Both the position numbers and the translations under genes were made by a program. Positions 19,583 to 64,000 of a DNA stretch of 64,000 nt are shown here, piece after piece. This stretch comes from Synergistales bacterium. GTDB taxonomy: Bacteria > Synergistota > Synergistia > Synergistales > JAFGMB01. The stretch covers positions 2,884,784-2,948,783 of the forward strand of contig OY762654.1 of NCBI GenBank assembly GCA_963666205.1, written 5' to 3'. Each line of letters begins with the position of its first letter. Position 1 is the stretch's first letter. The notes beneath the pieces were generated by a model, which did no database searches, was not told where the DNA came from, and was given only the letters and a program-made list of their open reading frames with translations.

Positions 19583-19656
19583 TCTTTACGAGGTCCATCC
19601 AATTGTCTTTGAAAAAGGGCTTTATTCTTTTTCTTTCAAGAAAATGCAGGGAAAAA

Positions 19657-20565
19657 GTGTGCGAAATTATCCTTGGTATACTCTTTCTTTACATGGTTCT
19701 TGGAATTAATCCGAACCCTTGTTATCCTTCCGGGTTGGATATCTGGTGTACATCTCCGTGGATATCATTAATGGCTGATTTTATTGGCGGAATACATATC
19801 TCTGTCCATTCGATAGAGAACTGGGATGAAACTGGAGAAAAGGTCAATCTTCGGATGGTTGCAAATGAAGAGATTCCTCAGGATGCTATGATATTGGCAT
19901 TAGATCGTGTTCAGGCGGAAAAACTTGGTATATCCAACGATAATTTCCCGAATCTTAAAACCCTTTATACCCGGATCCCTGTCAGGTCAGAAATGTTACG
20001 ATCCCTGTATTATGACCCTTCAACTCTGCCTTTTCTTGCTCAAAGAGTAATGAATGTGCTATCAGGTTATGATCCAGTTCATTATTCCTATTTTCAAAGA
20101 CGACTTGCTGAATTTCAAACAAGACTCGACAGTACAGTTCTTGTAGGCAGAAAGCTTCTTATGGGTACCGATGTGATTTCTATCGGGATGGATGTTTCAC
20201 AGCTTATGGTAGCTGCAGGTTGTAATATACAACCCTTACCGGCCGATCTTATCCCTCCGCCTCCCCTTGAAAGTAAGGATAAAAAGAAAAATAAACAACA
20301 ATCAGATGATTTTAATCAAGCAATGGATAAGCTTATAAGCTATCTTCAGGAAGAGAGGCAAAAGGGTTCTATTACAGTTATGGATCCATGGACGCCACTA
20401 TATCTGAGGGAAAGACTTCTGGAAATCAAGACTGTGATAATGTTGCCGCGACCTTCTCTTGAAGCAGAATACATTCTATTTCTTAATGATCATTACCTGG
20501 CTTTATGGAATGGACTTCGCCTTCTGAATAATTCAAATGAGGGAAACGCTCAAAAGATAAGCTGA
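19657..20565 (+). CDS. Hypothetical exported protein, weak ZnuA/TroA-like solute-binding fold (start uncertain)
   Basis: Long ORF co-directional with the pyr genes; hydrophobic N-terminus; YYDP...LSGYDPVHYSYFQRRLAEF helix pattern. Confidence 0.6.
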   Translation: MCEIILGILFLYMVLGINPNPCYPSGLDIWCTSPWISLMADFIGGIHISVHSIENWDETGEKVNLRMVANEEIPQDAMILALDRVQAEKLGISNDNFPNLKTLYTRIPVRSEMLRSLYYDPSTLPFLAQRVMNVLSGYDPVHYSYFQRRLAEFQTRLDSTVLVGRKLLMGTDVISIGMDVSQLMVAAGCNIQPLPADLIPPPPLESKDKKKNKQQSDDFNQAMDKLISYLQEERQKGSITVMDPWTPLYLRERLLEIKTVIMLPRPSLEAEYILFLNDHYLALWNGLRLLNNSNEGNAQKIS

Positions 20566-20999: not shown

Positions 21000-22046
21000 T
21001 CAGATACTATCAACCAACCTTATGAGACCTTTCCCTTTCGTAAAAATTCCTATTTTAGCTGATCGTTCGAATCCCGCCAGAAGGAGTCCTTCGAGGATCT
21101 TATGGAATCTATCTTCCGGTACAGCGAGAAGCAGTCCTCCGGAGGTCTGGGCATCAAAAATCATGTCGACAAGGGTTTCAGGATGGTTTTCCTTGTTAAT
21201 TACCTTATCCTCGTATTGTATTCTGTTGTTATATGTTCCTGCAGGAAGAAGTCCCATCTCTGCCAGTTCAACAGCACCAGGGAGAAGCGGTATGTTATTG
21301 ATATCAATAAGGAGATCCAATCCCCCCAAAGAAAGCATGTCAAGAGCATGACCTGCTAGTCCGAAGCCAGTGACATCAGTACATGCTGAAACAGCTGAGA
21401 GGAGTCTGTCTTCAAGGAGAACGGGGACATTATTGAGGGTTGACATCCAACGGATCGATTCTTCCGGCCCCCTGGGATCCTCCACCATGTCAGCCTTGAT
21501 AGCGGTCGATATTACTCCTGTACCGATGGGTTTTGTAAGTATAAGCACGTCACCCGGTTGTGCGCCTGTTACCTGCCACATATGGTTTCTCTGGACTTCT
21601 CCGAAAACTGCAAGACCGTATTTGGGTTCTTCGTCTTCAACACTATGGCCACCCATAAGAAATCCTCCAGCTTCTGAGACCTTCCTATGTCCTCCCTGAA
21701 GGATATTTTCAAGGACGGAAAGTTCGAGGGTCTTAACTGGAAAAGCCACAATGTTAAGAGCTATCATTGGTTTTCCGCCCATTGCAAAGACATCACTCAA
21801 AGCATTCGCAGCGGCTATTTCCCCCCATTTTCCTGGATCATCAACTATTGGTGTTACAAAATCAAGGGTTAATATTCCGACACGGTTCTCATCTATCAAC
21901 CACATGGCGGCATCTTCTCCGGATGCCCATGAACTGAGAAGCCTTCTATCCACAGGTTTAGGTAAGTGCTGTAAAACCTTTTCCAGGTCCGCCGGACCTA
22001 TTTTTGCTGCTCAGCCACTTGTCTTGGCCATTTCAGTTAAACGCAT
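21000..22046 (-). CDS. selD: Selenide, water dikinase (selenoprotein, Sec at codon 12)
   Basis: GGAGG RBS, then MRLTEMAKTSG-TGA-AAKIGPADL in frame with EDAA, LDFVTP, ALSDVFAMGG, GGHS, DVTGFGLAGH, DAQTSGGLL. Confidence 0.95.
21985..21999 (-). promoter_or_regulatory. Bacterial SECIS hairpin of selD
   Basis: AGGUCC-GGC-GGACCU stem-loop starting 11 nt 3' of the in-frame UGA (22011-22013). Confidence 0.75.
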
Positions 22047-24310: not shown

Positions 24311-24347
24311 TATGGGGGATATTCCCCAGTTGCAGAGGTGTAAAATT

Positions 24348-26147
24348 ATGAAACTTTTGAGAAATCTTTTTATTCTGATCTTCCTGGGCCTTGGGGTTGT
24401 TTCATTCCCTTTACGTGCTTACAGTTCATCCTTTATACCGTCGAAACCTGTCATGGGGGTACAAGATCTCAGACCGGGTATGAAGGGAGAGGCCCTTACT
24501 GTGATACAGGGACAAGAAATAGTATCTTTTCCTGTAGAGATAATCAGTGTAATTCCGAAAAAGGGTATTCCCAGAAATCTTGTAATGATAAAGGCAACTG
24601 GTCCGGTAATCGAGAAAACAGGTGGTATAGCATCAGGTATGAGCGGTAGTCCCGTATATATTCAGGGGAAACTTATTGGTGCTATCGGATATGGGTGGAA
24701 CTTTACCGAGCATGATCTTGGTCTGGTGACCCCTATAGAGGATATGGCCTCCATATGGGAATGGCCAGAAAGAGTTCCTGAATTCACCAGAACTGTTCAG
24801 TTACCAGCAAAAACAGAGAAAGGGAAGATGCAATCTGATCCATCAAGTGAAACAGAGAAAGAAACTTTCAGTGATAATTTACTGAAAGAAAGGGCGGCCC
24901 CCCTTATGGCTGATGGATTGAGCCCCAGATCTCTTGAAAATATTGGCAATCTGTTGCATCGGAATGTACTCGCTGTTGGAGGTTCGGGATCTACAGATCT
25001 TCCTGTGATATATAGCGCCTCAATATTTCCGGGACAGGCAATTGGAGTCCTTCTTGCATGGGGTGATGTGACCATGGGAGCGACAGGGACTATTACGTCC
25101 ATCTCCAGTGATGGACGTTTTGTCGGTTTTGCTCACCCTTTCCTGAACCGGGGAAATGTTGCTTATCCTCTTACAACAGCCTGGGTGCACAGTGTCGTAC
25201 CCAGTATTCAGGCACCTTTTAAGGTTGGAACTCCTCTTCAGATAATAGGATCTGTTACTCAGGACAGACCTCAAGCGATAGGTGGTCGCATAGGAGTATT
25301 TATGCCATCTGTAGATGCTTCTGTCAGCTTTTCTGATATGGATACAGGTTACAAATCAACAAGAAAGTTTCATGTGGTATATGATCCCTTTATGATCTCG
25401 GAAATTCTTCCTGAAATGGTTGCAGGGATAATTGATGAGACATGGGGGCGAAACGGAGAGGGTACAGCCAGGGTTAATCTGACGATAGAAGGTGGAGGAC
25501 TGCACAAGGGTTGGGAAAGATCTAATTATTTCTTTTCTGATAAAGACACAGTCAAGGAGTGTATAAAGGAAATCAGTGAGATCACCCGAATAATTTCCCT
25601 TAACCCTTTTCAGGAAATTGTCCCGTTGGGTATACACGTTGATGTAGAGTTAACCTCTCTGCCTAAGATCCTTTTTATAGAGAATCTCAATGTTGAGAAA
25701 AAGGAAGTTAAACCTGGAGACAAGGTTTCTGTAGAGGTAAAGTTGAGACCTTATAGAAAATCTCAGGTCTTGAAGAAGTATACACTGACTGTACCTGAAG
25801 ATGCTTTTGGACCCTGTGAAATCCTGGTCAGGGGAGGAGGCATAGCTGAATTGGGACAAGAGACTATTGCCCAGGGTTACCAGAGTATTTCTTCTTTTTC
25901 TCAGATGTTGAGGGAGATGAATGCAAAAGAGGCTAATAATGAAGTTATCCTTGAAATCCTGTGTGAAAAGAATCCAGTCTCTCAGTTAAAAGAACAAGAT
26001 GAAGAAGAGCTTCTGAGCGAAGTAAAGGCACGAAGAATAAAAGATGGAACATTGCGTGTCTTTAAATCCGATTACTATGTGGAAGGTCTTCTCAGAAAGA
26101 CAATATCTGTAAATACTTCCAAAGGAGCAACGGGGACTTCGCCCTGA
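24348..26147 (+). CDS. Exported SpoIVB-type (S55) peptidase domain protein
   Basis: Signal peptide; GGIASGMSGSPVYIQGKLIGA catalytic motif; FAHPF. Confidence 0.85.
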   Translation: MKLLRNLFILIFLGLGVVSFPLRAYSSSFIPSKPVMGVQDLRPGMKGEALTVIQGQEIVSFPVEIISVIPKKGIPRNLVMIKATGPVIEKTGGIASGMSGSPVYIQGKLIGAIGYGWNFTEHDLGLVTPIEDMASIWEWPERVPEFTRTVQLPAKTEKGKMQSDPSSETEKETFSDNLLKERAAPLMADGLSPRSLENIGNLLHRNVLAVGGSGSTDLPVIYSASIFPGQAIGVLLAWGDVTMGATGTITSISSDGRFVGFAHPFLNRGNVAYPLTTAWVHSVVPSIQAPFKVGTPLQIIGSVTQDRPQAIGGRIGVFMPSVDASVSFSDMDTGYKSTRKFHVVYDPFMISEILPEMVAGIIDETWGRNGEGTARVNLTIEGGGLHKGWERSNYFFSDKDTVKECIKEISEITRIISLNPFQEIVPLGIHVDVELTSLPKILFIENLNVEKKEVKPGDKVSVEVKLRPYRKSQVLKKYTLTVPEDAFGPCEILVRGGGIAELGQETIAQGYQSISSFSQMLREMNAKEANNEVILEILCEKNPVSQLKEQDEEELLSEVKARRIKDGTLRVFKSDYYVEGLLRKTISVNTSKGATGTSP

Positions 26148-51588: not shown

Positions 51589-54334
51589 GTTTGTAGTGAT
51601 AACGGGTCCTTCTGGATCAGGAAAATCTTCTCTTGCTTTTGATACTCTTTACGCAGAGGGACAGAGAAGGTATGTTGAGTCACTTTCAGCATATGCTCGT
51701 CAGTTTCTGGGTGTTCAGGATAAACCGGATGTGGATGATATTTCCGGCCTTTCCCCCGCTATATCCATAGAACAGAAGGGGACTTCCCATAATCCCCGAT
51801 CAACAGTAGGTACTGTCACGGAAATATACGATCATCTTCGTCTCCTTTTCGGTCGAATCGGTATACCTCATTGTCCTTCATGTGGAATGCCTGTAATAAA
51901 ATATTCACTTGACGAGATCCTTGATGAACTCTACCGGAACTTCGAAGGCGAAAAGATAGAAATTCTGTCTCCCCAGGTCAGAGGAAAGAAGGGCGAGTTC
52001 AGGAATCTCTTTGCCAGGAATCGGGAACAGGGTTTTATGCGTATCAGAGTGGATGGTTCTGTTATGTGGCTGGAAGAAGATATACCTCTGGATAAGAACA
52101 AAAAACATAATATTGAGGTCATCGTAGATAGGCTTAAGGTTTTGCCTGAAAGGAAGAACAGAATAGCTGAAGCAGTGGAAACATCTCTTTCTTTAAGCGA
52201 AGGGTATGTGATGATCTGTGGTGAGTCTTCAGAGAGGATACTCACTGAAAATTATGTATGTCCTGAATGTGGTATATCACTCCCGGAAGTCGAACCCAGA
52301 CTTTTTTCATTCAACAGTCCTTACGGAGCTTGTCCTGACTGTTCAGGTCTCGGAAGTCACCAGTATTTTTCAGAAGAGTCGACGACAGATCCTCTGCGCT
52401 CAATATTTGAGGGTGCCCTGCTTCCCTGGAAGAAAAAACACTATATGATCAACAAGCTTGAGCGTTTTGCAGAATATAACAATTGGGATCTTTCGAAACA
52501 CTTTAAAGATCTTTCGCAAAGGGAAAAAGAATTTATTCTCTATGGTTCCGATCAAAGAATATCACTTGAATTCAGAGACAGGTCAAAGGTCAGGACCTAT
52601 ATGGGGAGATACGAGGGATTATTACCGTGGCTTGAGAGCCGATGGAGGGAAACTGATTCAGATAATGTTATTGATGACCTTTCCAAGTTCAGGGTTGAAG
52701 ATATATGTCAGAAATGCCACGGATTACGTCTCAGACCTGAAGCTCTTATGGTTAGAGTAGGGAAATATACAATGGGTGATCTGGTAGAAATTCCAGTTCA
52801 GGACCTTATAGCAATAGTTAACGGGATTAACCTCAGTGCTAAAGAAGATTCAATTGTCGGCCAGGTTATTGTGGAGTTGATGAAAAGGCTGAGTTTCCTC
52901 ATGGATGTGGGGGTGGGATACCTTTCACTCAACAGAAGAGCTGATTCCCTCAGTGGCGGAGAGAGTCAGAGAATCCGATTGGCCACCCAGATAGGTTCTA
53001 AGCTGACAGGCGTTATGTATGTCCTTGATGAACCTACAATTGGCCTTCATCCAAGAGATACGGACCGTTTACTAAAGACATTGTTGTCGATAAGAGATCT
53101 TGGAAATACTGTTATAGTGGTGGAACATGATCGTGATACTATGTGTAATGCTGATTTCTTAATTGAAATGGGACCTGAAGCTGGCGAAAAGGGTGGAGAA
53201 ATAATCCAGTCAGGAGATCTGGATCATATTACAACTGAGAGATCTCTGACTGCACCATTTCTTAAAGGCTACGCATCAGCAATAACTAAGACTCCAGCTA
53301 CTCCTCGAAAACCTGAGAGCTGGATAAAGGTGATCGGTGCCTGTCATAATAATCTGAAAAATATCAATGTAAATATACCGCTGGGTGTCCTTACATGTAT
53401 CAGCGGGGTTTCAGGTTCCGGCAAGAGTACTTTGACCCATCAGGTACTTTACAAGGGACTTAAACGGTCTCTTGATTCGGATTTTAGAGAGAGGCCCGGC
53501 AAATATCTGGGAATTGAAGGCTGGGAAGTACTGAAAAATGTAGTTCTTGTAGATCAGTCCCCTATAGGGAGAACTCCGAGGTCCAACCCTGCCACTTACA
53601 CGGGGGTATTTACTCTTATACGGGAGCTTTTTTCCAAAGTCCAGGAATCCCGAATGCGGGGTTATTCTCCTGGCCGGTTCAGTTTCAATATCAAAGGGGG
53701 AAGATGTGAAGCATGTGGCGGAGGAGGTTCTGTGAAAGTTTCCATGCTTTTCCTGCCCGATGTTTATGTTAAATGTGAGGTATGTGATGGAAAAAGGTAT
53801 AATAGCGAAACTCTTGAAGTACATTATAAAGGTAAAAATATTTCAGAAGTTCTTGATATGACTGTAGATGAAGCGAAGACCTTTTTTGAGGATATACCCC
53901 GTATCTCATCCAAACTTGCACTTTTGCAGGATGCTGGTCTTGGATATATTAAACTGGGGCAGTCTGCCCTAACTCTCAGTGGAGGAGAAGCTCAGAGGGT
54001 CAAACTGGGCAAGGAGTTGAGCAAACGCTTTACTGGTCACACCCTATATATCCTTGATGAACCTACTACAGGCCTCTTCTATACAGATGTCAGAAAACTA
54101 TTGAAAATACTGCATAAGATTGTTAACAAGGGTAATAGTGTTCTTGTAATAGAACATAACCTTGATGTTCTGGTTTCTTCAGATTACATAATCGATCTGG
54201 GACCTGAGGGTGGAGATAAAGGCGGAAGGGTAGTCTTCAATGGAACTCCTGATAATCTGCTAAAATCCCGGAAAGGTTACACTTCCCGCAGCCTGAAGGA
54301 GTATATGAAAGATACACAGCGGAAGGATAGGTGA
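51512..54334 (+). CDS. uvrA: Excinuclease ABC subunit A
   Basis: GAREHNLKN, two ABC domains ([21 protein letters not shown]), zinc fingers; GTG start inferred. Confidence 0.96.
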
Positions 54335-55110
54335 TTATCCTGGTAAATATAAAGAATCCAAGGAATGGAACGGAACTCTGCTGGGGTCGACAGCCCGTAC
54401 TGACATTACTTTCAGAGTTTCCTTCAAAATGTGTAAAAGTTCTGCTTTCAGAATCTGCAGACAAAACCTTTTCCCACAGAGTTGAGGAAATCACATCTGC
54501 AAAAAATATTGTCCTTGAAAAGGTTCACGCAGGTGTTCTTGAGAAACTTTCCAAAGGAGAAAACCATCAGGGTATAGTTGTGCGCATAGAAGCATTTGAA
54601 CCTATTGATCTTGATGATTTTATACATGGACTGGATCCTGCCAAACCCAGCATGTTAATAATTCTCGACCACATACAGGATCCCCATAACCTCGGTGCAA
54701 TTATCCGTAGTGCAGAAGCGGCTGGCGCTTCTGGAGTGATATTCCCAAGCAAACGTTCTTCATCACCTACGGGGACTGTAATCAAGATAAGTGCAGGTTC
54801 TGCATTAAGGGTTCCTCTTATATGTGTGGTGAATATCTCAAGGACTCTTCAACTTCTTCAGAAGGCCGGTTTCTGGATTGTAGGTCTTGATCACAAGGGA
54901 GAACGGGGAATATGGGAAGATGATATGCCATCAAGGCTTGGTCTCGTCGTAGGTTCTGAAGGTGAAGGATTATCCAGGCTTGCAGCTTCTAAATGTGATG
55001 AACTTAGAAGTATTCCTATGAGCGGGAAGACCGCATCTCTTAATGCAAGTGTAGCCGCTGCTATCGGGATGTATGAATGGACAAGGGAATTTATGGGTAA
55101 AATAACCTAA
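54331..55110 (+). CDS. rlmB: 23S rRNA Gm2251 methyltransferase (TrmH/SpoU family)
   Basis: HQGIV, QDPHNLGAIIRSA, VGSEGEG, IPM.G..ASLNASVA. Confidence 0.9.
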   Translation: MIILVNIKNPRNGTELCWGRQPVLTLLSEFPSKCVKVLLSESADKTFSHRVEEITSAKNIVLEKVHAGVLEKLSKGENHQGIVVRIEAFEPIDLDDFIHGLDPAKPSMLIILDHIQDPHNLGAIIRSAEAAGASGVIFPSKRSSSPTGTVIKISAGSALRVPLICVVNISRTLQLLQKAGFWIVGLDHKGERGIWEDDMPSRLGLVVGSEGEGLSRLAASKCDELRSIPMSGKTASLNASVAAAIGMYEWTREFMGKIT

Positions 55111-55167
55111 GAATCATTTTACCTGTGTTGAAACAATTCACTTTACTATCTGGATGGGGTGTGAAGA

Positions 55168-56019
55168 ATGGGAAATACAAAAAAAATGAAGATTGCAGTT
55201 CTAGGTGCTGGTATTATAGGATCTGCCATATGTAAGTGTCTCATATCCGAGGGATATGAAGTCACAGCTACCAGGAGAAAGCTGGAGAAGGGCCGATCGC
55301 TTGAGAAGATGGGCGTCAGGGTTATTTCTGATAACAGGCTTGCTGCTGAAGAGGCAGACCTTGTTTTGTTTACAGTAAAACCTTTTCAGGTAATACCATT
55401 AGCCCTTGAAGTATCTGAAGGAATAAGGGGTAAAATATGTATCTCAATGGCTGCAGCTCTGGAACTGTCTTTACTATGTAAGGTCCTGCCTGATGTGAAA
55501 TGGATCAGGGGGATGACAAATACATGTGCTATTGTGAAAAAAGCTTTTACTGTATACACGCCCTCCAAGAGTCTTTCCAATGATGACTTATCAATGGTTG
55601 ATGGTCTTCTGCAAACCATGGGGCTTGTTGAAATGGTTGAAGAAAGATTTATGGATCCGCTGACAGCTATGTCGGGATCTGGTCCTGCCTATATATACCT
55701 GGTTATTGAGGCTTTGACCTATGGAGGACTTCGTGTCGGCATTCCAAGGGATCTGGCTTGTAAAGCTGCAGCAAGTACTGCAATTGGTGCAGCAGAACTC
55801 CTTTTATCAGCCGATGTCCATCCGGCCGAACTAAGAGATCAGGTAGTAACCCCGGGAGGCACGACAATAGAAGGAATATACGAACTCGAAGACGCCCAGA
55901 TCAGGACAGCTTTTATGAGAGCTATCAGTGCTGCTACCGAGAGAGGGCATCAACTTGCCGAACAAGTTAGAAAACAGGCTTTACAGCAGATAAAGGATAG
56001 TGAGGAATCCAAAGAATGA
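55168..56019 (+). CDS. proC: Pyrroline-5-carboxylate reductase
   Basis: GAGIIG, VKP, SGSGPAY, VVTPGGTTI. Confidence 0.94.
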   Translation: MGNTKKMKIAVLGAGIIGSAICKCLISEGYEVTATRRKLEKGRSLEKMGVRVISDNRLAAEEADLVLFTVKPFQVIPLALEVSEGIRGKICISMAAALELSLLCKVLPDVKWIRGMTNTCAIVKKAFTVYTPSKSLSNDDLSMVDGLLQTMGLVEMVEERFMDPLTAMSGSGPAYIYLVIEALTYGGLRVGIPRDLACKAAASTAIGAAELLLSADVHPAELRDQVVTPGGTTIEGIYELEDAQIRTAFMRAISAATERGHQLAEQVRKQALQQIKDSEESKE

Positions 56020-56021
56020 TC

Positions 56022-56058
56022 AAAAGGAAGTGCCGTTATTCGGCACTTCCTTTTTTTT
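56022..56058 (+). terminator. Intrinsic terminator after proC
   Basis: AAAAGGAAGTGCCG-ttatt-CGGCACTTCC-T8. Confidence 0.9.
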
Positions 56059-56085
56059 CTTCTCTCCCAAAGTGCTTCAATTTTC

Positions 56086-56115
56086 TTGACAGAAAGATTC
56101 CTCTTGTTTTACAAT
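56086..56115 (+). promoter_or_regulatory. Candidate sigma70 promoter far upstream of the NSS transporter
   Basis: TTGACA-18 bp-TACAAT. Confidence 0.5.
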
Positions 56116-56933
56116 AATTTTCGTTTAAGCTGGTCTGCCCTACAATATTCACAAAAGTAGCAGCATATCCATTCTAAGCAGATTTTATCATTTCCATTTC
56201 CTCTTCACTGTTTGGACCAGCAAGTGAAATCAGAAAACCCATTCTTCTTTTCTTTTCATCTGTACAATTTTGCCTGTCTTTTCGAATATTAAGATTTTTT
56301 TGATCGTGTCCCTTTTCTGTTCAGGATTGTATCTAGTTTCTTCGGTTTGCTACTAATGTACATAAGTTTATAGTTAGCCGTGTTTCTAAAATATTCTTAT
56401 AAACAAGTTAACCAGTTGGACAGGCAAACCCCATATGTAATGACAGCCTGTGATATTTATTCAAAAAACAGAAAATTCTTTTCCTGGAAGTGAATCTCCT
56501 GTGTGTTTTAGTTGCAAGGGTGATGTGTTGAGTCTGCCGTGTAATCTCCTGAACACTCTGTCCTAAAGAAAGCAGCGCTCATCCCTTGATTTTCCTTGCA
56601 GGGATTATGATGAGAAATTATCGCTTTTACAGGATATAAACATGTTAAAAGGACAGAATATATGAGTATGTCATAGCAAAAGGAGATAGGGGTGCAGAAA
56701 ATATCTTGCCTTGTGAAGTGTCAATAAAGAGGCAACAGAGTTAATTCAGCGTTAAAAACAATGAAGAATATTAACATTCGTCCTTATTGTGGCCTTTTGC
56801 AATTTAACGCCTGGATAGGGTGGAGGTGATGGTGACCCAGAGATTAAACTGATCTTTCTGATGTTAGAGGTGGCTTCTATATGCAGTTTTAGGGGAATCT
56901 GTATAAAAAGAAGTAAAGGGGGCGTTATTATTT

Positions 56934-58409
56934 ATGAGTGGAAAGACTGCTAAGACGGAACAGTGGGGATCCCGAACTGGCCTTATTCTATCGGCAATAG
57001 GGATGGCGGTTGGTACTGGCAACATCTGGAGATTTCCCCGGGTTGCCGCAGCTAATGGAGGTGGCCCTTTCATAGTACTTTGTATTCTTGCATTGTTCCT
57101 CTGGGGTATTCCTATTATGATGGCCGAGGCTGTGCTGGGTAAGTCTACGAGGTTTGGAGTCATCGGTTCGTTCAAGAAATTCATTGGAGAGAAATATACG
57201 TGGATGGGCGGTATAGTAGCCTGGATATGTCTTTGTGTTACCTTTTATTATGCAGTAGTAGTGGGTTATTGCCTCCGCTATGCTGTCTACGCTTTTACCG
57301 GTGTTATAAAATCCGGTCTTGATACAGAACTTTTATGGACCACTTTCAGTAATAATCCAACTGATAAGATGGTCTTTCATGTTGTTGCCATGATCATTTG
57401 TACACTTGTCATCATGAAGGGTATTCAGACAGGTATTGAGAGGATAAACAAGATACTTATTCCTGCTCTTTTCATTTTACTTATAGTGTTAATGCTCCGT
57501 GCTATTACTCTTCCCGGCTCTTTGGCAGGTCTTGAGTACCTTTTCTCGCCAGCCAACATTAAACTGTTCGGAAGCGCCAAAGTCTGGCTCGAGGCTTTTA
57601 CCCAGATTGCCTGGTCCACCGGGGCAGGATGGGGCCTTATGCTTACTTACTTCGTTTATGTTAAGAACGAGGAAGATATATCTTTAAATGCTACTCTAGT
57701 CTGTTTTGCAGATACAAGCGCTGGTATGCTTGCCGCAATGGTTGTCATTCCTACGATCTTTGCTCTTTCACCCGATCCTGCTCCTATCCTTGCAGCCGGA
57801 AACAGTGGTATTACATTCATTCACCTTACAAGGCTTTTCACTACAATGCCAATGGGTCATCTTGCCGCAATTATGTTTTTCGTAGCCCTTTCTTTTGCCG
57901 CGCTTTCCTCACTCCTTTCAATGGTGGAACTCGGAGTGCGTTTGCTCCTTGATATGGGCTGGACACGTACCAAAGCGGCTCTTTTTGCAGGAGTGGCCAT
58001 TACAATTCTTGGTCTTCCTTCATCCTACAGCATGGCTTTCCAGGATAACCAGGACTGGGTATGGGGCGTTGGACTTCTTGCAAGCGGTGTCTTCATAACC
58101 ATCGCAATGATGAAATACGGGATCGGCAAAGTTTACGATGAACATATTGCCCCAACTTCAAACATAAATGCAAGATGGATATGGAACCTGCTTTACCTGA
58201 TTCCAGTTATCTTCGTTGTTCTGTTCAGCTGGTGGGTCTGGCAGGCAGCTACCTGGTATCCTGGCGAATGGATGAAATGGCTCCCGATTTCCAAGTATAC
58301 CTTTACTGTTGGGACAATGTTCTATCAGTGGATACCCTGTTTTGCTGTAATTATCCTGCTCAATAACTGGTTCAACAAAGTGATGAAATATCCTGCCGTG
58401 TTGGATTAA
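56934..58409 (+). CDS. Sodium-dependent amino-acid transporter, NSS/SNF family
   Basis: W.SR, AVGTGNIWRFP, NGGGPF, TFYYAVV, GIERINK, AALSS. Confidence 0.94.
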   Translation: MSGKTAKTEQWGSRTGLILSAIGMAVGTGNIWRFPRVAAANGGGPFIVLCILALFLWGIPIMMAEAVLGKSTRFGVIGSFKKFIGEKYTWMGGIVAWICLCVTFYYAVVVGYCLRYAVYAFTGVIKSGLDTELLWTTFSNNPTDKMVFHVVAMIICTLVIMKGIQTGIERINKILIPALFILLIVLMLRAITLPGSLAGLEYLFSPANIKLFGSAKVWLEAFTQIAWSTGAGWGLMLTYFVYVKNEEDISLNATLVCFADTSAGMLAAMVVIPTIFALSPDPAPILAAGNSGITFIHLTRLFTTMPMGHLAAIMFFVALSFAALSSLLSMVELGVRLLLDMGWTRTKAALFAGVAITILGLPSSYSMAFQDNQDWVWGVGLLASGVFITIAMMKYGIGKVYDEHIAPTSNINARWIWNLLYLIPVIFVVLFSWWVWQAATWYPGEWMKWLPISKYTFTVGTMFYQWIPCFAVIILLNNWFNKVMKYPAVLD

Positions 58410-58449
58410 CACTAATAAGTGTATCTAACACTGAAGAGGAGGAATGATT

Positions 58450-58545
58450 ATGTGGGTATTGTGGATGCTTGTTGTTCTAGGACTGGTCTGGGGCGGAACC
58501 GTTTGGTGTGTTAAGAAAACCATGGATGCAGAAGCTCAGAAATAG
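58450..58545 (+). CDS. MetS-type NSS transporter small subunit (31 aa)
   Basis: GAGGAGG RBS; MWVLWMLVVLGLVWGGTVWCVKKTMDAEAQK, one hydrophobic helix with VWGG, between transporter and terminator. Confidence 0.85.
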   Translation: MWVLWMLVVLGLVWGGTVWCVKKTMDAEAQK

Positions 58546-58567
58546 TATTAAATATATATTAATTAAT

Positions 58568-58599
58568 TCAAAGGGAGCGAGTTTTCTCGCTCCCTTTGA
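58568..58599 (+). terminator. Terminator after the transporter operon
   Basis: TCAAAGGGAGCGAG-tttt-CTCGCTCCCTTTGA 14-bp perfect stem. Confidence 0.8.
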
Positions 58600-58948
58600 C
58601 AAGGTATTCATACTCTTAATATATAATTAATAGGAAGAAATGTTCTATCCGTAATTAAATTGCTCTTTAATAAATTCTGTTCAGGAGAGGCGAATTACTC
58701 CGGAAGAAAGGAGATTTGCCAGCAGTTCCTTTACAACAAAAAATATCACCTGGAAAGTTTAGAACCTGTAAGCAATCCCTTGTCTGCTTATTGATTCTAT
58801 ACGGGAAGATAAGATATTCCGTATCAAAATCTCCGAAACAGAGTATTCTTTTCATTATCTGCTCAATCTGATAATGATAATTCCGTGCAAGTTTTGCGTA
58901 CAGAGTGAACGAGCGTGCTACGAACCGGTATTAGCTGTTTAATTAAAA

Positions 58949-58966
58949 ATGTGATTAATTTCACAT
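58949..58966. promoter_or_regulatory. Rex- or CRP/FNR-type operator upstream of proline racemase
   Basis: ATGTGA-TTAATT-TCACAT (TGTGA-N6-TCACA). Confidence 0.65.
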
Positions 58967-59020
58967 ATAGCGGTTCTTAATATTGCCTAATTAATGGACT
59001 ATCTATAAGGAGGGTCTGTG

Positions 59021-60028
59021 ATGGAGATAGAACGAGCTGTCGCTGTTATAGATACCCATACGGGTGGAGAACCTACCAGGATAATCATTGGTGGTGGTCC
59101 TTTTCTGAACGGTGAAACAGTAGCTGATAAATGGCTTGAATTCAAGGAGAAACACAATGATTTCAGAACCTTCGTTATGAGAGAGCCCAGGGGGCATAAC
59201 GATATGTTCGGTGCTCTTATTACGCCTCCAGAAAAGAGAGGTTCTCATTTTGGTGTTCTTTTTATGGATGCTGGTGGCAGTATTTCCATGTGTGGGCATG
59301 GTTCTATAGGGATGGCAAGGACTCTTGTTGAACTTGGAATGATCCACAAAACAGAGCCGACCACAACAGTTTTCCTTGATTCTCCGGCTGGACTCGTTCA
59401 ATTAGACGTAGAAGTTTCTCAAGGCCTGGTAGGGGACGTGACTATGAAGAATGTACCTGCTTTCCTGTATGAAGAGAATGTGGAAGTGGAAGTTCCTTCA
59501 TTGGGACGCAAGATCAAGATCGATATTGCGTTTGGAGGAAATTTCTTTGCCATTGTGCCAGCAGGGCAACTTGGAATGGACCTTATCGCACAGGAAACTC
59601 CGAAGTTGATCCCTCTGGGACTTGAGATAAGAGATGTGGTGAATCGAAAACTTAAAATCCAACATCCTGTCGAAACACATATTGATAAGGTAGAACTGAC
59701 AGAATTCAGTCTAGAGAGAGAAGGACTTCCGACAAAAAACCTGGTGGTATTTGGAGATGGAGCAGTGGACAGGTCTCCTTGCGGGACTGGAACCTGTGCC
59801 AAGATGGCTACCCTGGTTGCCAAAGGAAAACTCAAATACGGAGAAGAATTTATCCATGAAGGTGTTACCGGCAGTCATTTCAGGGGGACCACTGAGGCCG
59901 GTCCTGAAGTTGGGGTTTTTGGCACGGTCATACCTTATATCAGGAGTCGTTCGAACGTAACGGGGTTCAACTTTCTATTGAAACAGAAAGGTGATGACGT
60001 GGGAGACGGCTTTTTCCTGCCTCGCTAA
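59021..60028 (+). CDS. prdF: Proline racemase
   Basis: HTGGEPTR, EPRGHNDMFGA, MCGH and DRSPCGTGT Cys/Cys dyad; both specificity Phe residues of true racemases (DMFG, VVFG) retained. Confidence 0.88.
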   Translation: MEIERAVAVIDTHTGGEPTRIIIGGGPFLNGETVADKWLEFKEKHNDFRTFVMREPRGHNDMFGALITPPEKRGSHFGVLFMDAGGSISMCGHGSIGMARTLVELGMIHKTEPTTTVFLDSPAGLVQLDVEVSQGLVGDVTMKNVPAFLYEENVEVEVPSLGRKIKIDIAFGGNFFAIVPAGQLGMDLIAQETPKLIPLGLEIRDVVNRKLKIQHPVETHIDKVELTEFSLEREGLPTKNLVVFGDGAVDRSPCGTGTCAKMATLVAKGKLKYGEEFIHEGVTGSHFRGTTEAGPEVGVFGTVIPYIRSRSNVTGFNFLLKQKGDDVGDGFFLPR

Positions 60029-60185
60029 ACGTGCTTGACAAAAGGTAGTTTCTATAATATCTCGACCAAGGGATTGGGGGAATAGAAAAGATCTTATGAA
60101 AACAACATATTCCTAGGTAAGTTGTAGTGATCAAGGGGGAGTCGCTCAATTATGTCTGTTTTTTTCGGTGAAAGGAGTGAGTTAT

Positions 60186-60518
60186 TTGGGCTGGATCAAA
60201 GAACATCCTGTACTGGAGTTCAGTCACAAAAAGAAAGTCAAGTTTGTTTTTGATGGCAAAGATCTGGAAGGTTATGAGGGAGAACCTATTGCTGCCGCCC
60301 TTCATGCCAATGGTGTAACAACTTATCGCAAAACAAAGAGAATGGATAGAGACAGGGGATTCTTTTGTGCTATTGGAAAATGTTCCTCCTGCTTTATGGT
60401 TGTAGATGGAGTGCCCAATGTCCGTACATGTGTGACAGCCCTGAAAGAAGGCATGAACGTTGAAACCCAGCACGGAGATGGACAGGTAGCATTGCTGGAT
60501 GAAAGGAAAAGAAGGTGA
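60186..60518 (+). CDS. [2Fe-2S] subunit (N-terminal module of proline dehydrogenase/sarcosine oxidase alpha, HcnA-like)
   Basis: GEPIAAAL, RGFFCAIGKCSSC..VDGVPNVRTC; TTG start behind AGGAG. Confidence 0.88.
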   Translation: MGWIKEHPVLEFSHKKKVKFVFDGKDLEGYEGEPIAAALHANGVTTYRKTKRMDRDRGFFCAIGKCSSCFMVVDGVPNVRTCVTALKEGMNVETQHGDGQVALLDERKRR

Positions 60519-61627
60519 GTACCTTGCGTGAAACTGAACTTCTTGTCGTTGGTGGAGGTCCCGCTGGACTTTCTGCAGCAGTAGAAGCAGCTTCTCATGG
60601 TTGTGAAGTCATGGTCGTAGATAGTGACCTCGCATTAGGAGGGCAGTTGATCAAACAGACCCACAAGTTCTTTGGTTCAGAATCTGAAAGAGCTGGTACC
60701 CGGGGTTTCAAGATAGCTGAAATACTTTTGGATGAGCTTGACCAATTTAAAGGGAAGGTGGAAGTTCTCACAAACACTACAGCCGAAAGTTATTACAGAG
60801 GTGATGGTGTGGTTGGCTGTATGACCAATGAGGAGAATTACTGGTTGGTTAAGCCCAAAAAGATTGTGAATGCTACTGGTGCTTCAGAAAAGATCCTTCC
60901 TTTCCCTAATAATGATCTTCCAGGTGTCTATGGTGCAGGAGCGATCCAGACCCTTATGAATGTCTACGGGGTAGTGCCAGGTAAAAAAGTTCTTATGGTA
61001 GGAGCAGGTAATATCGGTCTTGTTGTTAGCTACCAGTTGCTTCAGGCAGGAGTTGATGTTGTTGGCATAGTGGAATTCTTACCAAACATCAGCGGTTATT
61101 GGGTACATGCAGCGAAGGTCAGACGTCTTGGAGTTCCTGTTCTCTTGAAGCATACCATAACAAGGGCAATTGGGGAAAACAAGGTTGAAGGAGCATATAT
61201 CCAGGCTGTAGACGACAATAATCAGTTAATGGGGGAACCCCAGAAGATAGATTGTGACATCATTTGTATGTCAGTGGGACTGTCTCCAACTGTAGACCTT
61301 TTATGGCAGGCTGGCTGCAAGATGATGTATGTCCCAGAACTTTGTGGCTATGTTGCACGAAGAGACAATCAGATGCGTACCAGTAATGCTGATATCTGGG
61401 CAGCTGGAGATGCACATGGTATAGAGGAAGCTTCTGCCGCTATGGTAGAAGGACGAATAGCTGGCCTTGGCGCGGCTCATTCACTTGACCATGTTGACAG
61501 AGTACAGTTTGGGGAAAGGCTTGGGATGTTCTGGCAGAGACTGGATAACCTGAGAGCTGGAGCAACAGGTGAAAAAATCCGTTGCGGCGTGGGTAAATGT
61601 ACCTGCCAGGCCTGGGAGGTGGATTAA
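60515..61627 (+). CDS. FAD/NAD(P)-dependent oxidoreductase (PdhA/HcnB-like)
   Basis: VVGGGPAGLSAA, GGQLIKQTHKFFG, ATGA.E, NNDLPGV, VGAGNIGL, AAGD. Confidence 0.9.
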   Translation: MSTLRETELLVVGGGPAGLSAAVEAASHGCEVMVVDSDLALGGQLIKQTHKFFGSESERAGTRGFKIAEILLDELDQFKGKVEVLTNTTAESYYRGDGVVGCMTNEENYWLVKPKKIVNATGASEKILPFPNNDLPGVYGAGAIQTLMNVYGVVPGKKVLMVGAGNIGLVVSYQLLQAGVDVVGIVEFLPNISGYWVHAAKVRRLGVPVLLKHTITRAIGENKVEGAYIQAVDDNNQLMGEPQKIDCDIICMSVGLSPTVDLLWQAGCKMMYVPELCGYVARRDNQMRTSNADIWAAGDAHGIEEASAAMVEGRIAGLGAAHSLDHVDRVQFGERLGMFWQRLDNLRAGATGEKIRCGVGKCTCQAWEVD

Positions 61628-61628
61628 C

Positions 61629-62138
61629 ATGACTAAAGATGAAAAACTATTCAACAGTGGAGTTCTGACCAAAAGTCGGCCAGGAGCAGAGTTACCTCCC
61701 ACAGAACTCTGGAAAAAGAAGAAAAATGGACTGGTTATTATAGAGTGTCCCCAGCAAATACCGTGCAATCCCTGTTACTCAAGTTGTCCTACAGGAGCAG
61801 TTCTTCCCTTCAATAAGATCATTGATGTTCCACGTATCGACTACACAAAGTGTATAGGCTGTTCGCTGTGTGTTGCTACTTGCCCCGGACTTGCCTGTTT
61901 CGTAGTGGATCTTACCTACGGTTCTGAAGAAGAAGCGTTGATGAAACTGCCCTACGAAATGCTGCCAAGACCGGAAAAGGGTGAACAGGTGCACTGTCTG
62001 AACAGGGTCGGCGAGATTGTTGCACAAGGAAAAGTAGTTGAGGTCAATGAACCAAGAAAGGATAGTACCCTGGTGGTTCACGTAGTAGTGCCTAATGATC
62101 TGGTTAATGAAATCAGAGCTGTCAGGGTGGTGAAATAA
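61629..62138 (+). CDS. Ferredoxin subunit with two [4Fe-4S]-type motifs (PdhF/gamma-like)
   Basis: ECPQQIPCNPCYSSCP and CIGCSLCVATCPGLA; LPYE.LPRP. Confidence 0.88.
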   Translation: MTKDEKLFNSGVLTKSRPGAELPPTELWKKKKNGLVIIECPQQIPCNPCYSSCPTGAVLPFNKIIDVPRIDYTKCIGCSLCVATCPGLACFVVDLTYGSEEEALMKLPYEMLPRPEKGEQVHCLNRVGEIVAQGKVVEVNEPRKDSTLVVHVVVPNDLVNEIRAVRVVK

Positions 62139-62140
62139 CT

Positions 62141-62476
62141 ATGGCTGGAATATGCTCGGAAAAAAGAAAACTTGATGAAGGTGATATTGTTATCTGTCGC
62201 TGTAAAGAGGTAACCCTTAAAGAAATCAGGGAATGGATAGCAAGGGGCTATGATACTTATGATGAGTTAAAACGGCTTACCGGAGTAGGAATGGGGCCCT
62301 GCCAGGGTAGAGGTTGCAGAGATATCGTTATGAAAGAGATTGCCAGGATGACTGGTAAGACCCTGGAAGAGATCGGAACTGGTACTTACAGACCACCTGT
62401 GAAACCAGTTAAACTTGGAACCCTTACAGAAGCGAACAAGGATGATCCCTGGAAAGGAAAGGTGGTGAGTCACTAA
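62141..62476 (+). CDS. BFD-like [2Fe-2S] subunit (PdhX/delta-like)
   Basis: ICRCKEVT, LKRLTGVGMGPCQGRGC, RPPVKPV. Confidence 0.88.
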   Translation: MAGICSEKRKLDEGDIVICRCKEVTLKEIREWIARGYDTYDELKRLTGVGMGPCQGRGCRDIVMKEIARMTGKTLEEIGTGTYRPPVKPVKLGTLTEANKDDPWKGKVVSH

Positions 62477-63624
62477 TGGCCTGGAAAACTGCAGATATTG
62501 TTGTAATTGGTGGAGGAGTACAGGGCTGTTCTTCGGCGTACCATCTTGCCAAGCTGGGTGTAAAAAACATAATAGTGGTAGAAAAGGGTAGCATATGTTC
62601 AGGTTCCAGCGGGAGGTGTGGAGCAGGTATAAGGGCCCAGTGGGGCACCGAGATGAACTGCCGTTTTGGAAAAGCCTGTCTTGAACGCTTCGAAAACCTT
62701 GAAGAAGAATTGGGAATGAACGTAGGTCTCGATCAGAGTGGATATCTAATGGTGGCATACAAGGATAGCGAATTTGACCAACTCAAGGAAAACATCAAGC
62801 TTCAAAACAGCCTTGGCATTGATTCTCGCGTTGTTTCGAAGGATGAAGCATACGAGATATGTCCGGGTCTATCCGCCGATGATGCTTTGGGTTTTACATT
62901 CTACCAAAGAGATGGTCATGCTGATCCTTTTTTCACAACTTTTGCCTTTATGGAAAGTGCTAAAAGGCTCGGAGTCGAGTTTCTCAAATTTACAGAAGTT
63001 ATAGATATCAAGGTCGAAAATGGTGCCGTTAAAACTGTAGTGACAGACAAAGGAGAAATAGACACACCAGTGGTGCTTAATGCTGCAGGCGGTTTCTTTC
63101 ATGACATAGCTGAAATGATAGACCTTGAATTACCTGTCCATTCCGAGAACCACGATATTCTTGTAACCGAACCAGTAGAACTTGGTGTTTGTCCTCCAAT
63201 GCTGATGAGCTTCAGTGGTAACTATTACTTGCAGCAGAGGCCCGATGGAACCATTGTCGGGGGTTGCAGTCCAGTAGGACATCCTATCGAATATGATCTG
63301 AGGAGCAATTTTTCTTTCCTTGAACATATGGCCAGTGTGTTTACCAAGCTTCTTCCAAGAACCAGGGATATAAGGGTGGTAAGGCAATGGGCCGGTCTGT
63401 ATAACATGAGTCTTGACTGCCAGCCAATAATGGGTGAAGCTGAGCATGTCAAGGGTTTCTACATGACCGGAGCTTTCTCTGGCCATGGTTTCATGTTTGC
63501 TCCTGTTACGGGTGAACTGGTAGCTCAACTAATAGTGAGAGGTAACACCGATATGCCAATAGATATGCTTCACTATCGTCGCTTTGCTGAAGGGAAACTC
63601 ATTATAGAACCTGCGGTGGTTTAG
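62476..63624 (+). CDS. FAD-dependent amino-acid dehydrogenase, DAO family (PdhB/sarcosine oxidase beta-like)
   Basis: VIGGGVQG, SGSSGRCGAGIRAQW, RQWAGLY, FSGHGFM, EPAVV. Confidence 0.9.
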   Translation: MAWKTADIVVIGGGVQGCSSAYHLAKLGVKNIIVVEKGSICSGSSGRCGAGIRAQWGTEMNCRFGKACLERFENLEEELGMNVGLDQSGYLMVAYKDSEFDQLKENIKLQNSLGIDSRVVSKDEAYEICPGLSADDALGFTFYQRDGHADPFFTTFAFMESAKRLGVEFLKFTEVIDIKVENGAVKTVVTDKGEIDTPVVLNAAGGFFHDIAEMIDLELPVHSENHDILVTEPVELGVCPPMLMSFSGNYYLQQRPDGTIVGGCSPVGHPIEYDLRSNFSFLEHMASVFTKLLPRTRDIRVVRQWAGLYNMSLDCQPIMGEAEHVKGFYMTGAFSGHGFMFAPVTGELVAQLIVRGNTDMPIDMLHYRRFAEGKLIIEPAVV

Positions 63625-63805
63625 GAGATCGTTAATTTTACCTGATTCTGTTTTTCTTCTCCAGGTTTCGAAAAGTTTTCTTTTGTGCAAATGTTCAAAA
63701 GAAAGGTTTTTACAGGGAAGGTCTGCCTGTCTTGTTCAAAATGTTCCAGGAGCATATGATTTTTTGTATTTCCTGACCTTCTCTGTTATCTTACTTTGAG
63801 TTAGT

Positions 63806-63856
63806 CCTCATAAAAGAAGATCTTTTCATGGGGGTTTGAGGTCTTCTTTTATGAGG
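63806..63856. repeat. 15-bp inverted repeat
   Basis: CCTCATAAAAGAAGA-21 nt-TCTTCTTTTATGAGG. Confidence 0.7.
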
Positions 63857-64000
63857 TTCCAGATTATGGTATTTACCCTGGAAAGAACCCGGTCCTGTAA
63901 AACATGATATACAGGGTAACGTCTGATTTATATTCAAATCTAGCCACTTATTTTTCAATACCCATGCAAGCTTCAGTAAAGATCTTAAAAGATCTTATGG

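Follow-up and report, generated by a model that had tools for sequence, protein, structure and literature searches.

A Synergistota gene module related to the archaeal heteromeric dye-linked L-proline dehydrogenase, and its neighboring racemase gene

Results

The window is a 64,000-nucleotide (nt) stretch of the chromosome of a Synergistales bacterium (contig OY762654.1). Toward its 3' end, positions 55168 to 63624 hold a run of genes that all lie on the plus strand in the list of open reading frames (ORFs). These are proC, a sodium:solute symporter gene followed by a very small ORF, a gene of the proline racemase superfamily, and a set of five dehydrogenase genes that overlap or lie 1 to 2 nt apart (Table 1). 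A first-pass annotation, made from the letters alone, had named the same elements at the same places, and the ORFs together with the Pfam and NCBIfam domain calls bear it out. We propose that the products of the five genes form a single soluble flavoenzyme with several cofactors, which would correspond in Synergistota to the archaeal alpha-beta-gamma-delta dye-linked L-proline dehydrogenase (L-ProDH), and that the racemase would feed it either isomer of proline. We put the probability of this reading at roughly 0.6.

Table 1. Genes and hairpins at positions 55168 to 63624 of the window
Feature	Position	Strand	Basis
proC, pyrroline-5-carboxylate reductase	55168..56019	+	TIGR00112, PF14748, PF03807
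Intrinsic-terminator-like hairpin 3' of proC	56022..56054	+	14-pair stem, 7 GC pairs, then T run
NSS (SNF) sodium:solute symporter	56934..58409	+	PF00209, NF037979
33-residue single-helix hydrophobic ORF, candidate small NSS subunit	58444..58545	+	conserved position after NSS gene
Perfect 14-bp hairpin after the small ORF	58568..58599	+	fold energy versus shuffles
Proline racemase superfamily enzyme, Cys/Cys type	59018..60028	+	PF05544
alpha-N, Fer2_4 [2Fe-2S] protein	60168..60518	+	PF13510
alpha-C, Pyr_redox_2 FAD/NAD(P)H subunit	60515..61627	+	PF07992
gamma, ferredoxin-like, 2x[4Fe-4S]	61629..62138	+	Fer4 families
delta, BFD-like [2Fe-2S]/SO_alpha_A3 protein	62141..62476	+	PF17806, PF04324
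beta, DAO-family FAD subunit	62476..63624	+	PF01266

The five-gene module and archaeal L-proline dehydrogenase

The archaeal enzyme is encoded by pdhA-pdhF-pdhX-pdhB in Thermococcus profundus and has homologs in Pyrococcus horikoshii and Thermococcus litoralis. It combines a DAO-family beta subunit, an alpha subunit that binds flavin adenine dinucleotide (FAD) and nicotinamide adenine dinucleotide [NAD(H)], a ferredoxin-like gamma subunit, and a small delta subunit, and the window module has counterparts of beta, gamma, and delta, with the FAD and NAD(H) motifs of alpha in a protein encoded apart from alpha-N. The archaeal alpha subunit is a protein of about 54 kDa with NADH dehydrogenase activity. 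In T. litoralis, the pdhA, pdhF, pdhX, and pdhB homologs are OCC_00347, 342, 337, and 332, which is the alpha-gamma-delta-beta order of the window (PMC4364671).

Beta matches PF01266 at 1.2e-70. Among solved chains in the Protein Data Bank (PDB), its best relative is 1y56_B (278.4 bits, 8.6e-82), followed by the dimethylglycine dehydrogenase 4pab_A (123.6 bits) and SoxB (122.7 bits). The partner chain, 1y56_A, was deposited as "hypothetical protein PH1363", and PH1363/PH1364 is the alpha4beta4 L-proline dehydrogenase of P. horikoshii (PMC4364671). Two window proteins jointly cover PH1363. The 116-residue alpha-N (PF13510, 5.2e-29) matches residues 12 to 88 of 1y56_A at 3e-6, and the 370-residue alpha-C (PF07992, 2.4e-36) matches residues 110 to 277 at 3.7e-14. 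The score of the PH1364 chain, more than twice that of any other, the gene order, and the coverage of PH1363 together suggest that beta and its module are the L-ProDH counterpart. This agrees with the first-pass proposal that the archaeal pdhA-F-X-B order occurs here in a bacterium, the sequence comparison being with the PH1363 and PH1364 chains.

The window module differs from the archaeal enzyme in being bacterial and in having alpha divided between two genes. The alpha-N frame ends before or at the alpha-C start in 57 of 57 gene pairs, so that the split is fixed and is not explained by sequencing errors.

The residues expected to hold the cofactors are conserved along the predicted electron path. 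Alpha-N has Cys67, Cys72, Cys75, and Cys88 in 57 of 57 aligned rows, and the dinucleotide-binding motifs of alpha-C, GGGPAG and GAGNIG, are invariant in 17 of 17. Gamma matches Fer4 families at 1e-5 to 1e-6, and its Cys40, 46, 49, 53, 75, 78, 81, and 85, which make up two [4Fe-4S] motifs, are likewise invariant (17/17 rows). The longest ORF for gamma is 61569 to 62138, but translation probably starts at position 61629, where an ATG immediately follows the stop codon of alpha. The predicted structure of gamma (pLDDT of 88.9) consists of a cluster-binding part and a C-terminal beta-barrel. A Foldseek comparison of this model with the PDB gave 0 matches at E<=0.001, and the clusters found by an Atlas search, from Synergistota, Bacillota, and Archaea, were all generic ferredoxins.

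Delta is a protein of 111 residues that matches PF17806 (5.2e-16) and PF04324 (5.6e-12), and its Cys19, Cys21, Cys54, and Cys59 occur in every one of the 20 rows whose coverage is at least 85%. All five long relatives of beta (about 500 residues; P0126, P0139, P0147, P0184, and P0208) are natural fusions of a BFD/SO_alpha_A3 domain, as in delta, to a DAO domain, in the reverse of the domain order in GlpA and FngA. These fusions support the idea that delta and beta act together. Two further cysteines are invariant in alpha-C (Cys251 and Cys268; 58/58 rows) and two in beta (Cys48 and Cys62; 81/81 rows), and they might form an inter-subunit metal site.

Comparison with sarcosine oxidase and opine oxidase

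Beta is annotated in public databases as sarcosine oxidase subunit beta or as a generic FAD oxidoreductase. The best NCBIfam model for it is soxB, with 186.9 bits against a cutoff of 529.45. The soxA model is matched by alpha-N (model positions 14 to 100), alpha-C (169 to 483), and delta (520 to 601), so that the three proteins are collinear with its first 600 or so residues; their scores are 38.5, 177.6, and 41.8 bits, respectively, against a cutoff of 1164. We rejected heterotetrameric sarcosine oxidase (SoxABDG) as an assignment. The scores are far below the cutoffs, the folate-binding, GcvT-like C-terminal half of SoxA is missing, there are no SoxD or SoxG genes, and beta falls in a different clade from the SoxB of a plasmid sarcosine oxidase operon, to which it is 30% identical. 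An oxidase role is also unlikely because the organism is a strict anaerobe.

The clade assignment comes from FastTree and IQ-TREE trees of beta. They include beta2, a paralog from the nearest public locus, L001, which belongs to a metagenome-assembled genome (MAG) labeled Acetomicrobium hydrogeniformans. The beta of L001 is 99% identical to that of the window (beta1), and its DNA is about 89 to 91% identical across the region. Beta1 and beta2 form one clade (SH-like 97; SH-aLRT 90) that excludes both the SoxB-containing clade and the OoxB outgroup. Most leaves are unnamed, and what the trees show is that beta stands apart from the SoxB and OoxB references. One sequence considered as a representative of the PH1364 cluster, P0138, was ruled out because it reached only 270 bits against 1y56_B.

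Opine oxidase, the HCN synthase HcnABC, and the D-hydroxyproline dehydrogenase of Pseudomonas aeruginosa share a domain set with the module: a DAO subunit (HcnC and LhpB in the latter two), a small Fer2_4 protein, and a Pyr_redox_2 protein with a BFD-like domain. In the octopine oxidase operon, the (2Fe-2S)-binding protein is 35% identical to alpha-N, and OoxA is 27% identical to alpha-C and, in residues 392 to 472, 40% identical to delta. However, beta is only 24% identical to OoxB (76 bits, below its SoxB match and far below its match to 1y56_B), delta is a separate gene rather than a part fused to alpha, and the 2x[4Fe-4S] gamma protein is extra.

The racemase

The enzyme encoded upstream of the module matches PF05544 with 343 bits (1.6e-102). 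Its closest solved relative is AsProR (7pb3, 333 bits), ahead of 6j7c (275 bits) and the ProR of Trypanosoma cruzi (254 bits). Solved entries of the HypE and dehydratase types score at most 185 bits, with the HypE-type 2azp at 167 bits. The catalytic pair is Cys92, in MCGH, and Cys255, in DRSPCGTG. By the criteria of PMC4364671, Phe64 occupies site 1 and Phe245 site 5. Phe at both sites marks ProR in that scheme, and TlProR of T. litoralis has Trp and HypE Cys/Tyr. These residues support the first-pass description of a Cys/Cys racemase with proline-specific Phe residues. All 20 aligned relatives have Cys92, Cys255, and Phe64, and at least 90% of them have Phe245. The Trp at site 5 confers hydroxyproline use on TlProR (PMC4364671), and chain 6j7c also has Trp there. 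With Phe at this site, the window enzyme is expected to prefer proline and not to have the broad specificity of TlProR. It is 46 to 49% identical to Bacillota proteins named proline racemase, and the best reading of its sequence is a proline-preferring racemase.

The similarity to AsProR recalls the clostridial PrdF-PrdAB system, but here a dehydrogenase and not a reductase adjoins the racemase. As the first-pass annotation had said, PrdAB is missing from the window: there was no PrdA- or PrdB-like match among its 52 ORFs of at least 90 residues, 41 of which were listed only at E<=1e-20. The window does carry selD, for selenide, water dikinase, at 21000 to 21953 on the minus strand. Its presence indicates that the organism makes selenocysteine or another selenium compound, and this bears on whether the genome encodes selenoprotein reductases of the PrdB or GrdB type elsewhere.

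Transcription units, transporter, and proC

Because hairpins follow both proC and the small ORF, the region reads as three transcription units and not one. To judge from the sequence, the likely units are one that ends in rlmB-proC, one with the NSS gene and the small ORF, and one with the racemase and the five-gene module. The hairpin after the small ORF has a minimum free energy of -30.1 kcal/mol (z of -7.7), and 0 of 200 shuffled sequences fold as well. The terminator scan did not flag it, and it lacks an extended run of T. An exact-sequence search across the surveyed loci gave no match to it. Direct reading of the equivalent site in L001, where bases are altered, shows that the hairpin is retained through paired changes on both arms. 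It is probably a terminator or a processing site. The 139-nt spacer between the racemase and alpha-N genes showed neither a terminator-like site nor an unusual fold, and the racemase is probably co-transcribed with the module.

The terminator of proC is followed by about 900 bp with no convincing gene. This gap (56055 to 56933) is 68% identical to L001:2464-3449 over about 500 nt, and its flanks are about 90% identical. The proC-transporter gap of L001 also has about 1 kb of extra DNA with transposase fragments (DUF772 and DDE_Tnp_1_6). The gap may be a plastic spot at which the transporter-racemase block was inserted. An Rfam scan of positions 54000 to 64000 at E<=1 returned two chance-level matches far below their gathering scores, and it identified no riboswitch or leader in the 900-bp gap or in the 470-bp gap.

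The transporter matches PF00209 at 3e-52 and NF037979 with 92.8 bits against a cutoff of 50, and its best solved relative is 4us3_A (189.9 bits). From its context, its substrate would be proline or a related imino acid. An ORF like the 33-residue one (MWV..GG.GWC.KK) follows the NSS gene in six of six cases, namely, in the window and in L001, L039, L040, L052, and L065. It has no Pfam match at E<=10. It may resemble the small subunits of the MetS type, and we consider it a candidate small subunit of the NSS transporter. ProC scores 226 bits against TIGR00112, above the cutoff of 196.75. The first-pass annotation had suggested that ProC could form a proline/P5C cycle with the dehydrogenase, moving electrons between NAD(P)H and ferredoxin. 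Such a cycle is speculative, and the place of proC in the system is weakened, since proC lies behind a terminator and is beside the module in only one of the 80 loci surveyed below. ProC is probably a bystander, a housekeeping gene transcribed apart from the module and at most loosely related to it.

The rest of the window is ordinary chromosome, with PFOR, ackA, fab genes, selD, prfB, hypF, ftsH, uvrB, uvrA, and rlmB. Two ORFs on the plus strand, at 19414 to 20565 (383 residues) and 24312 to 26147 (611 residues), match no NCBIfam family at E<=1e-20.

Distribution of the module

Homology searches show that the relatives of beta number in the thousands. For the locus scan, the first beta alignment, A1 (24 rows), was too diverse and was narrowed to A2. 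The scan confirmed 565 relatives, and the best 80 were kept, all at least 54% identical to beta. The survey thus covers one clade, and archaeal and distant bacterial loci fall outside the best 80. A gene was counted as a neighbor when tblastn matched it at E<=1e-10 and a coverage of 50% or more. Module intactness was judged in the 58 of the 80 loci whose sequence extends 2400 nt or more upstream of beta; the full 10 kb upstream was available in 38, and both flanks were complete in 28. By their titles, 69 of the 80 loci are from Synergistota. The other 11 are titled Bacillota, Firmicutes, or Clostridia, Myxococcales, proteobacterium, or simply "bacterium".

The genes alpha-N, alpha-C, gamma, and delta directly precede beta in 52 of the 58 loci. 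Two more loci, L048 and L052, have the four genes, then a beta2-type gene, and then beta, which brings the intact modules to 54 of 58. The remaining four lack one or more module matches. In L048 (L048:2740-7218) and L052 (L052:6637-11134), a single alpha-N-alpha-C-gamma-delta set thus precedes a beta2-type and a beta1-type gene. This arrangement suggests that one electron-transfer module serves two catalytic subunits.

L001 has a second, paralogous module in the order beta2-alpha-N2-alpha-C2-gamma2-delta2 (L001:12024-15407). In the window it would start near coordinate 64500, just past the 3' end. Identity to beta1 is 39% for beta2, and each of the other four subunits shares 64 to 70% with its counterpart. 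The best solved match of beta2 is also 1y56_B (203.7 bits). These tandem modules recall the two tandem L-ProDH types of Thermococcus.

Six loci from MAGs labeled Firmicutes, Bacillota, or Clostridia (L029, L032, L033, L034, L036, and L038) encode a beta that is 63 to 67% identical to that of the window. L029, joined in the larger tree by L034, is sister to the window beta and not to L031, from an Acetomicrobium sp. This position points to gene transfer or to mis-binning.

Neighbors of the module

Any proline-linked neighbor (HypD, OCD, NSS, ProR, or proC) occurs in 20 of the 80 loci. A glycyl radical enzyme and its activase lie beside the module in 13 loci, and four of four such enzymes tested pass the HypD model NF043068 (1141 to 1189 bits against 1100). 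Genes of the OCD/mu-crystallin family are present in 12 loci, an AOR-family gene in 11, and an NSS homolog in 5. Three genes for a 2-oxoacid:ferredoxin oxidoreductase lie directly downstream of beta in 31 of the 80, for example, at L005:11525-14087. The alpha subunit of that example scores 567 bits against NF006412 (cutoff of 411) and is below the cutoff for 2-oxoglutarate synthase. Where both flanks are complete (28 loci), a proline-linked neighbor is present in 11 loci and the 2-oxoacid oxidoreductase in 10 others.

In L045 (L045:10001-17270), the module, an AOR-family gene, the HypD activase gene, and the HypD gene form a same-strand array. Arrays of this type also occur in L049, L057, L060, L062, L066, L067, L069, and L078, often with an OCD-like gene upstream on the opposite strand. 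As speculation, the AOR in these arrays could be a glutamate-semialdehyde:ferredoxin oxidoreductase.

The OCD family includes pyrroline-2-carboxylate (Pyr2C) reductases. The product of HypD is pyrroline-5-carboxylate (P5C) (PMC6219649). Therefore, these neighbors point to pyrroline-carboxylate and proline chemistry, in agreement with the homology of beta. The 2-oxoacid:ferredoxin oxidoreductase and AOR genes fit an onward oxidation through glutamate and a link to ferredoxin. HypD has been recorded in Synergistetes, and the accessible portion of that report does not mention the five-gene module (Huang et al. 2018, PMC6219649). Clostridia pair HypD with proC (PMC6219649). In contrast, the HypD neighbor in the 13 HypD-linked loci is the five-gene complex and not proC.

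Discussion

We suggest that the module acts as an L-proline dehydrogenase of the archaeal type. In this scenario, the FAD-containing beta subunit would interconvert L-proline and P5C. Delta and alpha-N, with their [2Fe-2S] clusters, would carry electrons to the FAD/NAD(H) site of alpha-C, and gamma, with its two [4Fe-4S] clusters, would exchange electrons with ferredoxin. The racemase would equilibrate D- and L-proline, so that either imported isomer could reach the L-specific dehydrogenase. The NSS transporter and its small subunit, in a separate unit, may import the substrate. We infer the substrate, reaction direction, and electron partners of the complex, as well as what the racemase does for it.

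Several points weigh against this reading. Beta was assigned by comparison with solved chains, SoxB, and OoxB, and family members at this level of resemblance can differ in substrate. The alpha4beta4 enzyme, for one, also acts on L-pipecolate (PMC4141209). The energetics are a second point. Oxidation of proline by NAD+ alone is uphill. The potential of the P5C/proline couple is about -120 mV. A. hydrogeniformans lacks cytochromes of the b and c types and does not respire sulfate or nitrate (PMC6025917). Therefore, the oxidative direction needs a further acceptor. A third point is that neither a proline-linked neighbor nor the 2-oxoacid oxidoreductase is present in 7 of the 28 loci whose flanks are both complete.

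The remaining points concern the racemase. Its score against the ProR equivalog model NF010576 is 379 bits, below the cutoff of 556. This is still the best of six models of the ProR superfamily, with HypE at 281.5 against 376 and T3LHyp dehydratase at 272.7 against 540. NCBI names its Synergistota relatives "proline racemase family protein", a cautious family-level name with which the sub-cutoff score is consistent. A ProR-superfamily gene is near the module in only 2 of the 80 loci (2 of the 38 with the full 10 kb upstream). One is L001, of the window's own lineage, and in the other, L039, the gene is on the opposite strand about 5.6 kb upstream. Orthologs 60 to 77% identical to the racemase occur in other Synergistota, including Thermovirgaceae, and the module loci of these organisms lack it. 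The adjacency of racemase and dehydrogenase is a local, lineage-specific arrangement and not a conserved unit, and the coupling of the two may be incidental. The first-pass annotation had coupled them into one system. Within the window, the two genes are adjacent with no terminator-like site between them. Across the clade the adjacency is not conserved, and this was half of what the annotation had listed as evidence against its own proposal.

A more far-reaching form of the L-proline dehydrogenase reading concerns the acceptor. The complex could be a flavin-based electron-bifurcating (confurcating), ferredoxin-dependent NAD+:L-proline oxidoreductase, a distant and differently assembled relative of FngABC. 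We consider this unlikely, and it is argued by analogy. In the FngABC enzyme of Pyrococcus furiosus, a DAO+BFD flavoprotein is combined with a Pyr_redox flavoprotein and a small Fe-S subunit, and the enzyme solves the uphill reduction of NAD+ by glycerol-3-phosphate by co-oxidizing reduced ferredoxin (Schut, Poole, and Adams; PMC13689815). The module has the same kinds of parts and faces the same thermodynamic problem, a mid-potential substrate that is unable to reduce NAD+ unaided. The uphill step from proline to P5C, with NAD+ as oxidant, would be pulled by the oxidation of reduced ferredoxin; if the reaction ran backward, NADH would reduce P5C and thereby drive the reduction of ferredoxin. 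The reduced ferredoxin could come from the 2-oxoacid:ferredoxin oxidoreductase or AOR that many Synergistota encode beside the module. We rejected membership in FngABC itself. The DAO and BFD parts are separate genes, alpha-C has no QC.H or Q[CS]IH motif, and gamma has no DUF1667 match at E<=10. A Gln-Cys-Ile-His motif is reported for all FngB (PMC13689815). The module also carries the extra Fer2_4 protein, and the DAO/BFD fusions among its relatives have the opposite order. Our literature search turned up no paper on the Synergistota module as a proline dehydrogenase and none that proposes bifurcation for L-ProDH.

Among the alternatives, the one that survives best is a complex that works mainly in the reductive direction, although its chances are small. 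It would be a P5C reductase fed by NADH, ferredoxin, or both, and would serve as an electron sink for P5C from HypD or glutamate, and the racemase would pass L-proline as D-proline to a D-proline reductase elsewhere in the genome. P5C reduction is downhill, and selD shows that the genome makes selenium compounds. None of the 13 loci with HypD, the P5C producer, has a proC match, in contrast to the clostridial HypD-proC pair. However, the window itself has no HypD and does have proC, 4 kb upstream, and no prdAB was seen within it. The 2-oxoacid:ferredoxin oxidoreductase and AOR neighbors fit an oxidative route at least as well.

A dehydrogenase for the D isomer, like the Pseudomonas lhp and the opine and HCN enzymes, is quite improbable. 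In such a pathway the racemase would make D-proline or D-hydroxyproline, beta would oxidize it to Pyr2C, and L-proline would be regenerated by a reductase of the OCD-like or ProC type. The make-up shared with opine oxidase in alpha-N, alpha-C, and delta is consistent with this scheme. The racemase directly upstream in the window and the OCD/mu-crystallin genes in 12 loci also fit, and PMC4141209 raises the conversion of D-proline to Pyr2C for such clusters. Yet, among solved chains, beta is by far closest to that of L-ProDH, and it is only 24% identical to OoxB. The gamma ferredoxin and the alpha-gamma-delta-beta order are traits of archaeal L-ProDH, the racemase is missing from 78 of the 80 loci, and HypD yields P5C and not Pyr2C. 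Another secondary or N-alkyl amino acid as substrate (pipecolate, a hydroxyproline, or sarcosine), with the neighbors reflecting a broader imino acid pathway, is similarly doubtful: the public label and the soxB model, the L-pipecolate activity of the archaeal alpha4beta4 enzyme (PMC4141209), and the beta2 paralog, which is found in this lineage as well as in L048 and L052 and hints at more than one substrate, are set against the separate SoxB clade, the missing SoxA half and SoxD and SoxG genes, and neighbors that are specifically pyrroline-carboxylate enzymes.

The closest precedent for the L-proline dehydrogenase with a racemase gene beside it is in T. litoralis. Its cluster holds the Cys/Cys racemase TlProR (OCC_00372), both heteromeric L-ProDH types, the OCD-like Pyr2C reductase LhpI, a T3LHyp dehydratase, and transporters (PMC4141209, PMC4364671). 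Several thermophilic archaea and bacteria have a proline-racemase-like gene inside clusters with LhpI (OCD-like), with PFL-like genes nearby (PMC4141209, PMC4364671). The OCD-like protein of Thermovirga lienii is close to the archaeal one, and gene transfer has been proposed (Watanabe 2014, 2015; PMC4141209, PMC4364671). What the window has in common with the T. litoralis cluster is a Cys/Cys ProR-superfamily gene grouped with heteromeric L-ProDH genes and transporters; what the Synergistota loci have in common with it is OCD-like genes and a PFL-like glycyl radical enzyme. Unlike that cluster, the window has no OCD-like or T3LHyp dehydratase gene, and its racemase linkage recurs so rarely in the bacterial loci (2/80). 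The first-pass annotation overstated the novelty of the racemase-dehydrogenase coupling, since a Cys/Cys ProR clustered with both L-ProDH types was already described for T. litoralis (PMC4141209, PMC4364671). What the window adds is a probable bacterial member of the known archaeal type of heteromeric proline dehydrogenase, with a fixed split of alpha.

The finding is of value mainly for the conserved module of Synergistota and for its neighbors HypD, AOR, and the 2-oxoacid oxidoreductase. Together with the OCD-like reductases, these neighbors sketch an anaerobic route that would link hydroxyproline, proline, P5C, and glutamate. Amino acid-fermenting Synergistota are common in anaerobic digesters and oil-field waters. 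To our knowledge, no physiological electron acceptor has been named for the archaeal "dye-linked" proline dehydrogenases in the two decades since they were described, and bifurcation, if true, would account for the missing acceptor. The Acetomicrobium group, to which the window belongs, has members that can be cultivated, and the complex, a soluble one, is of a size suited to expression. It would therefore be a practical system for studying whether strict anaerobes couple proline oxidation to ferredoxin.

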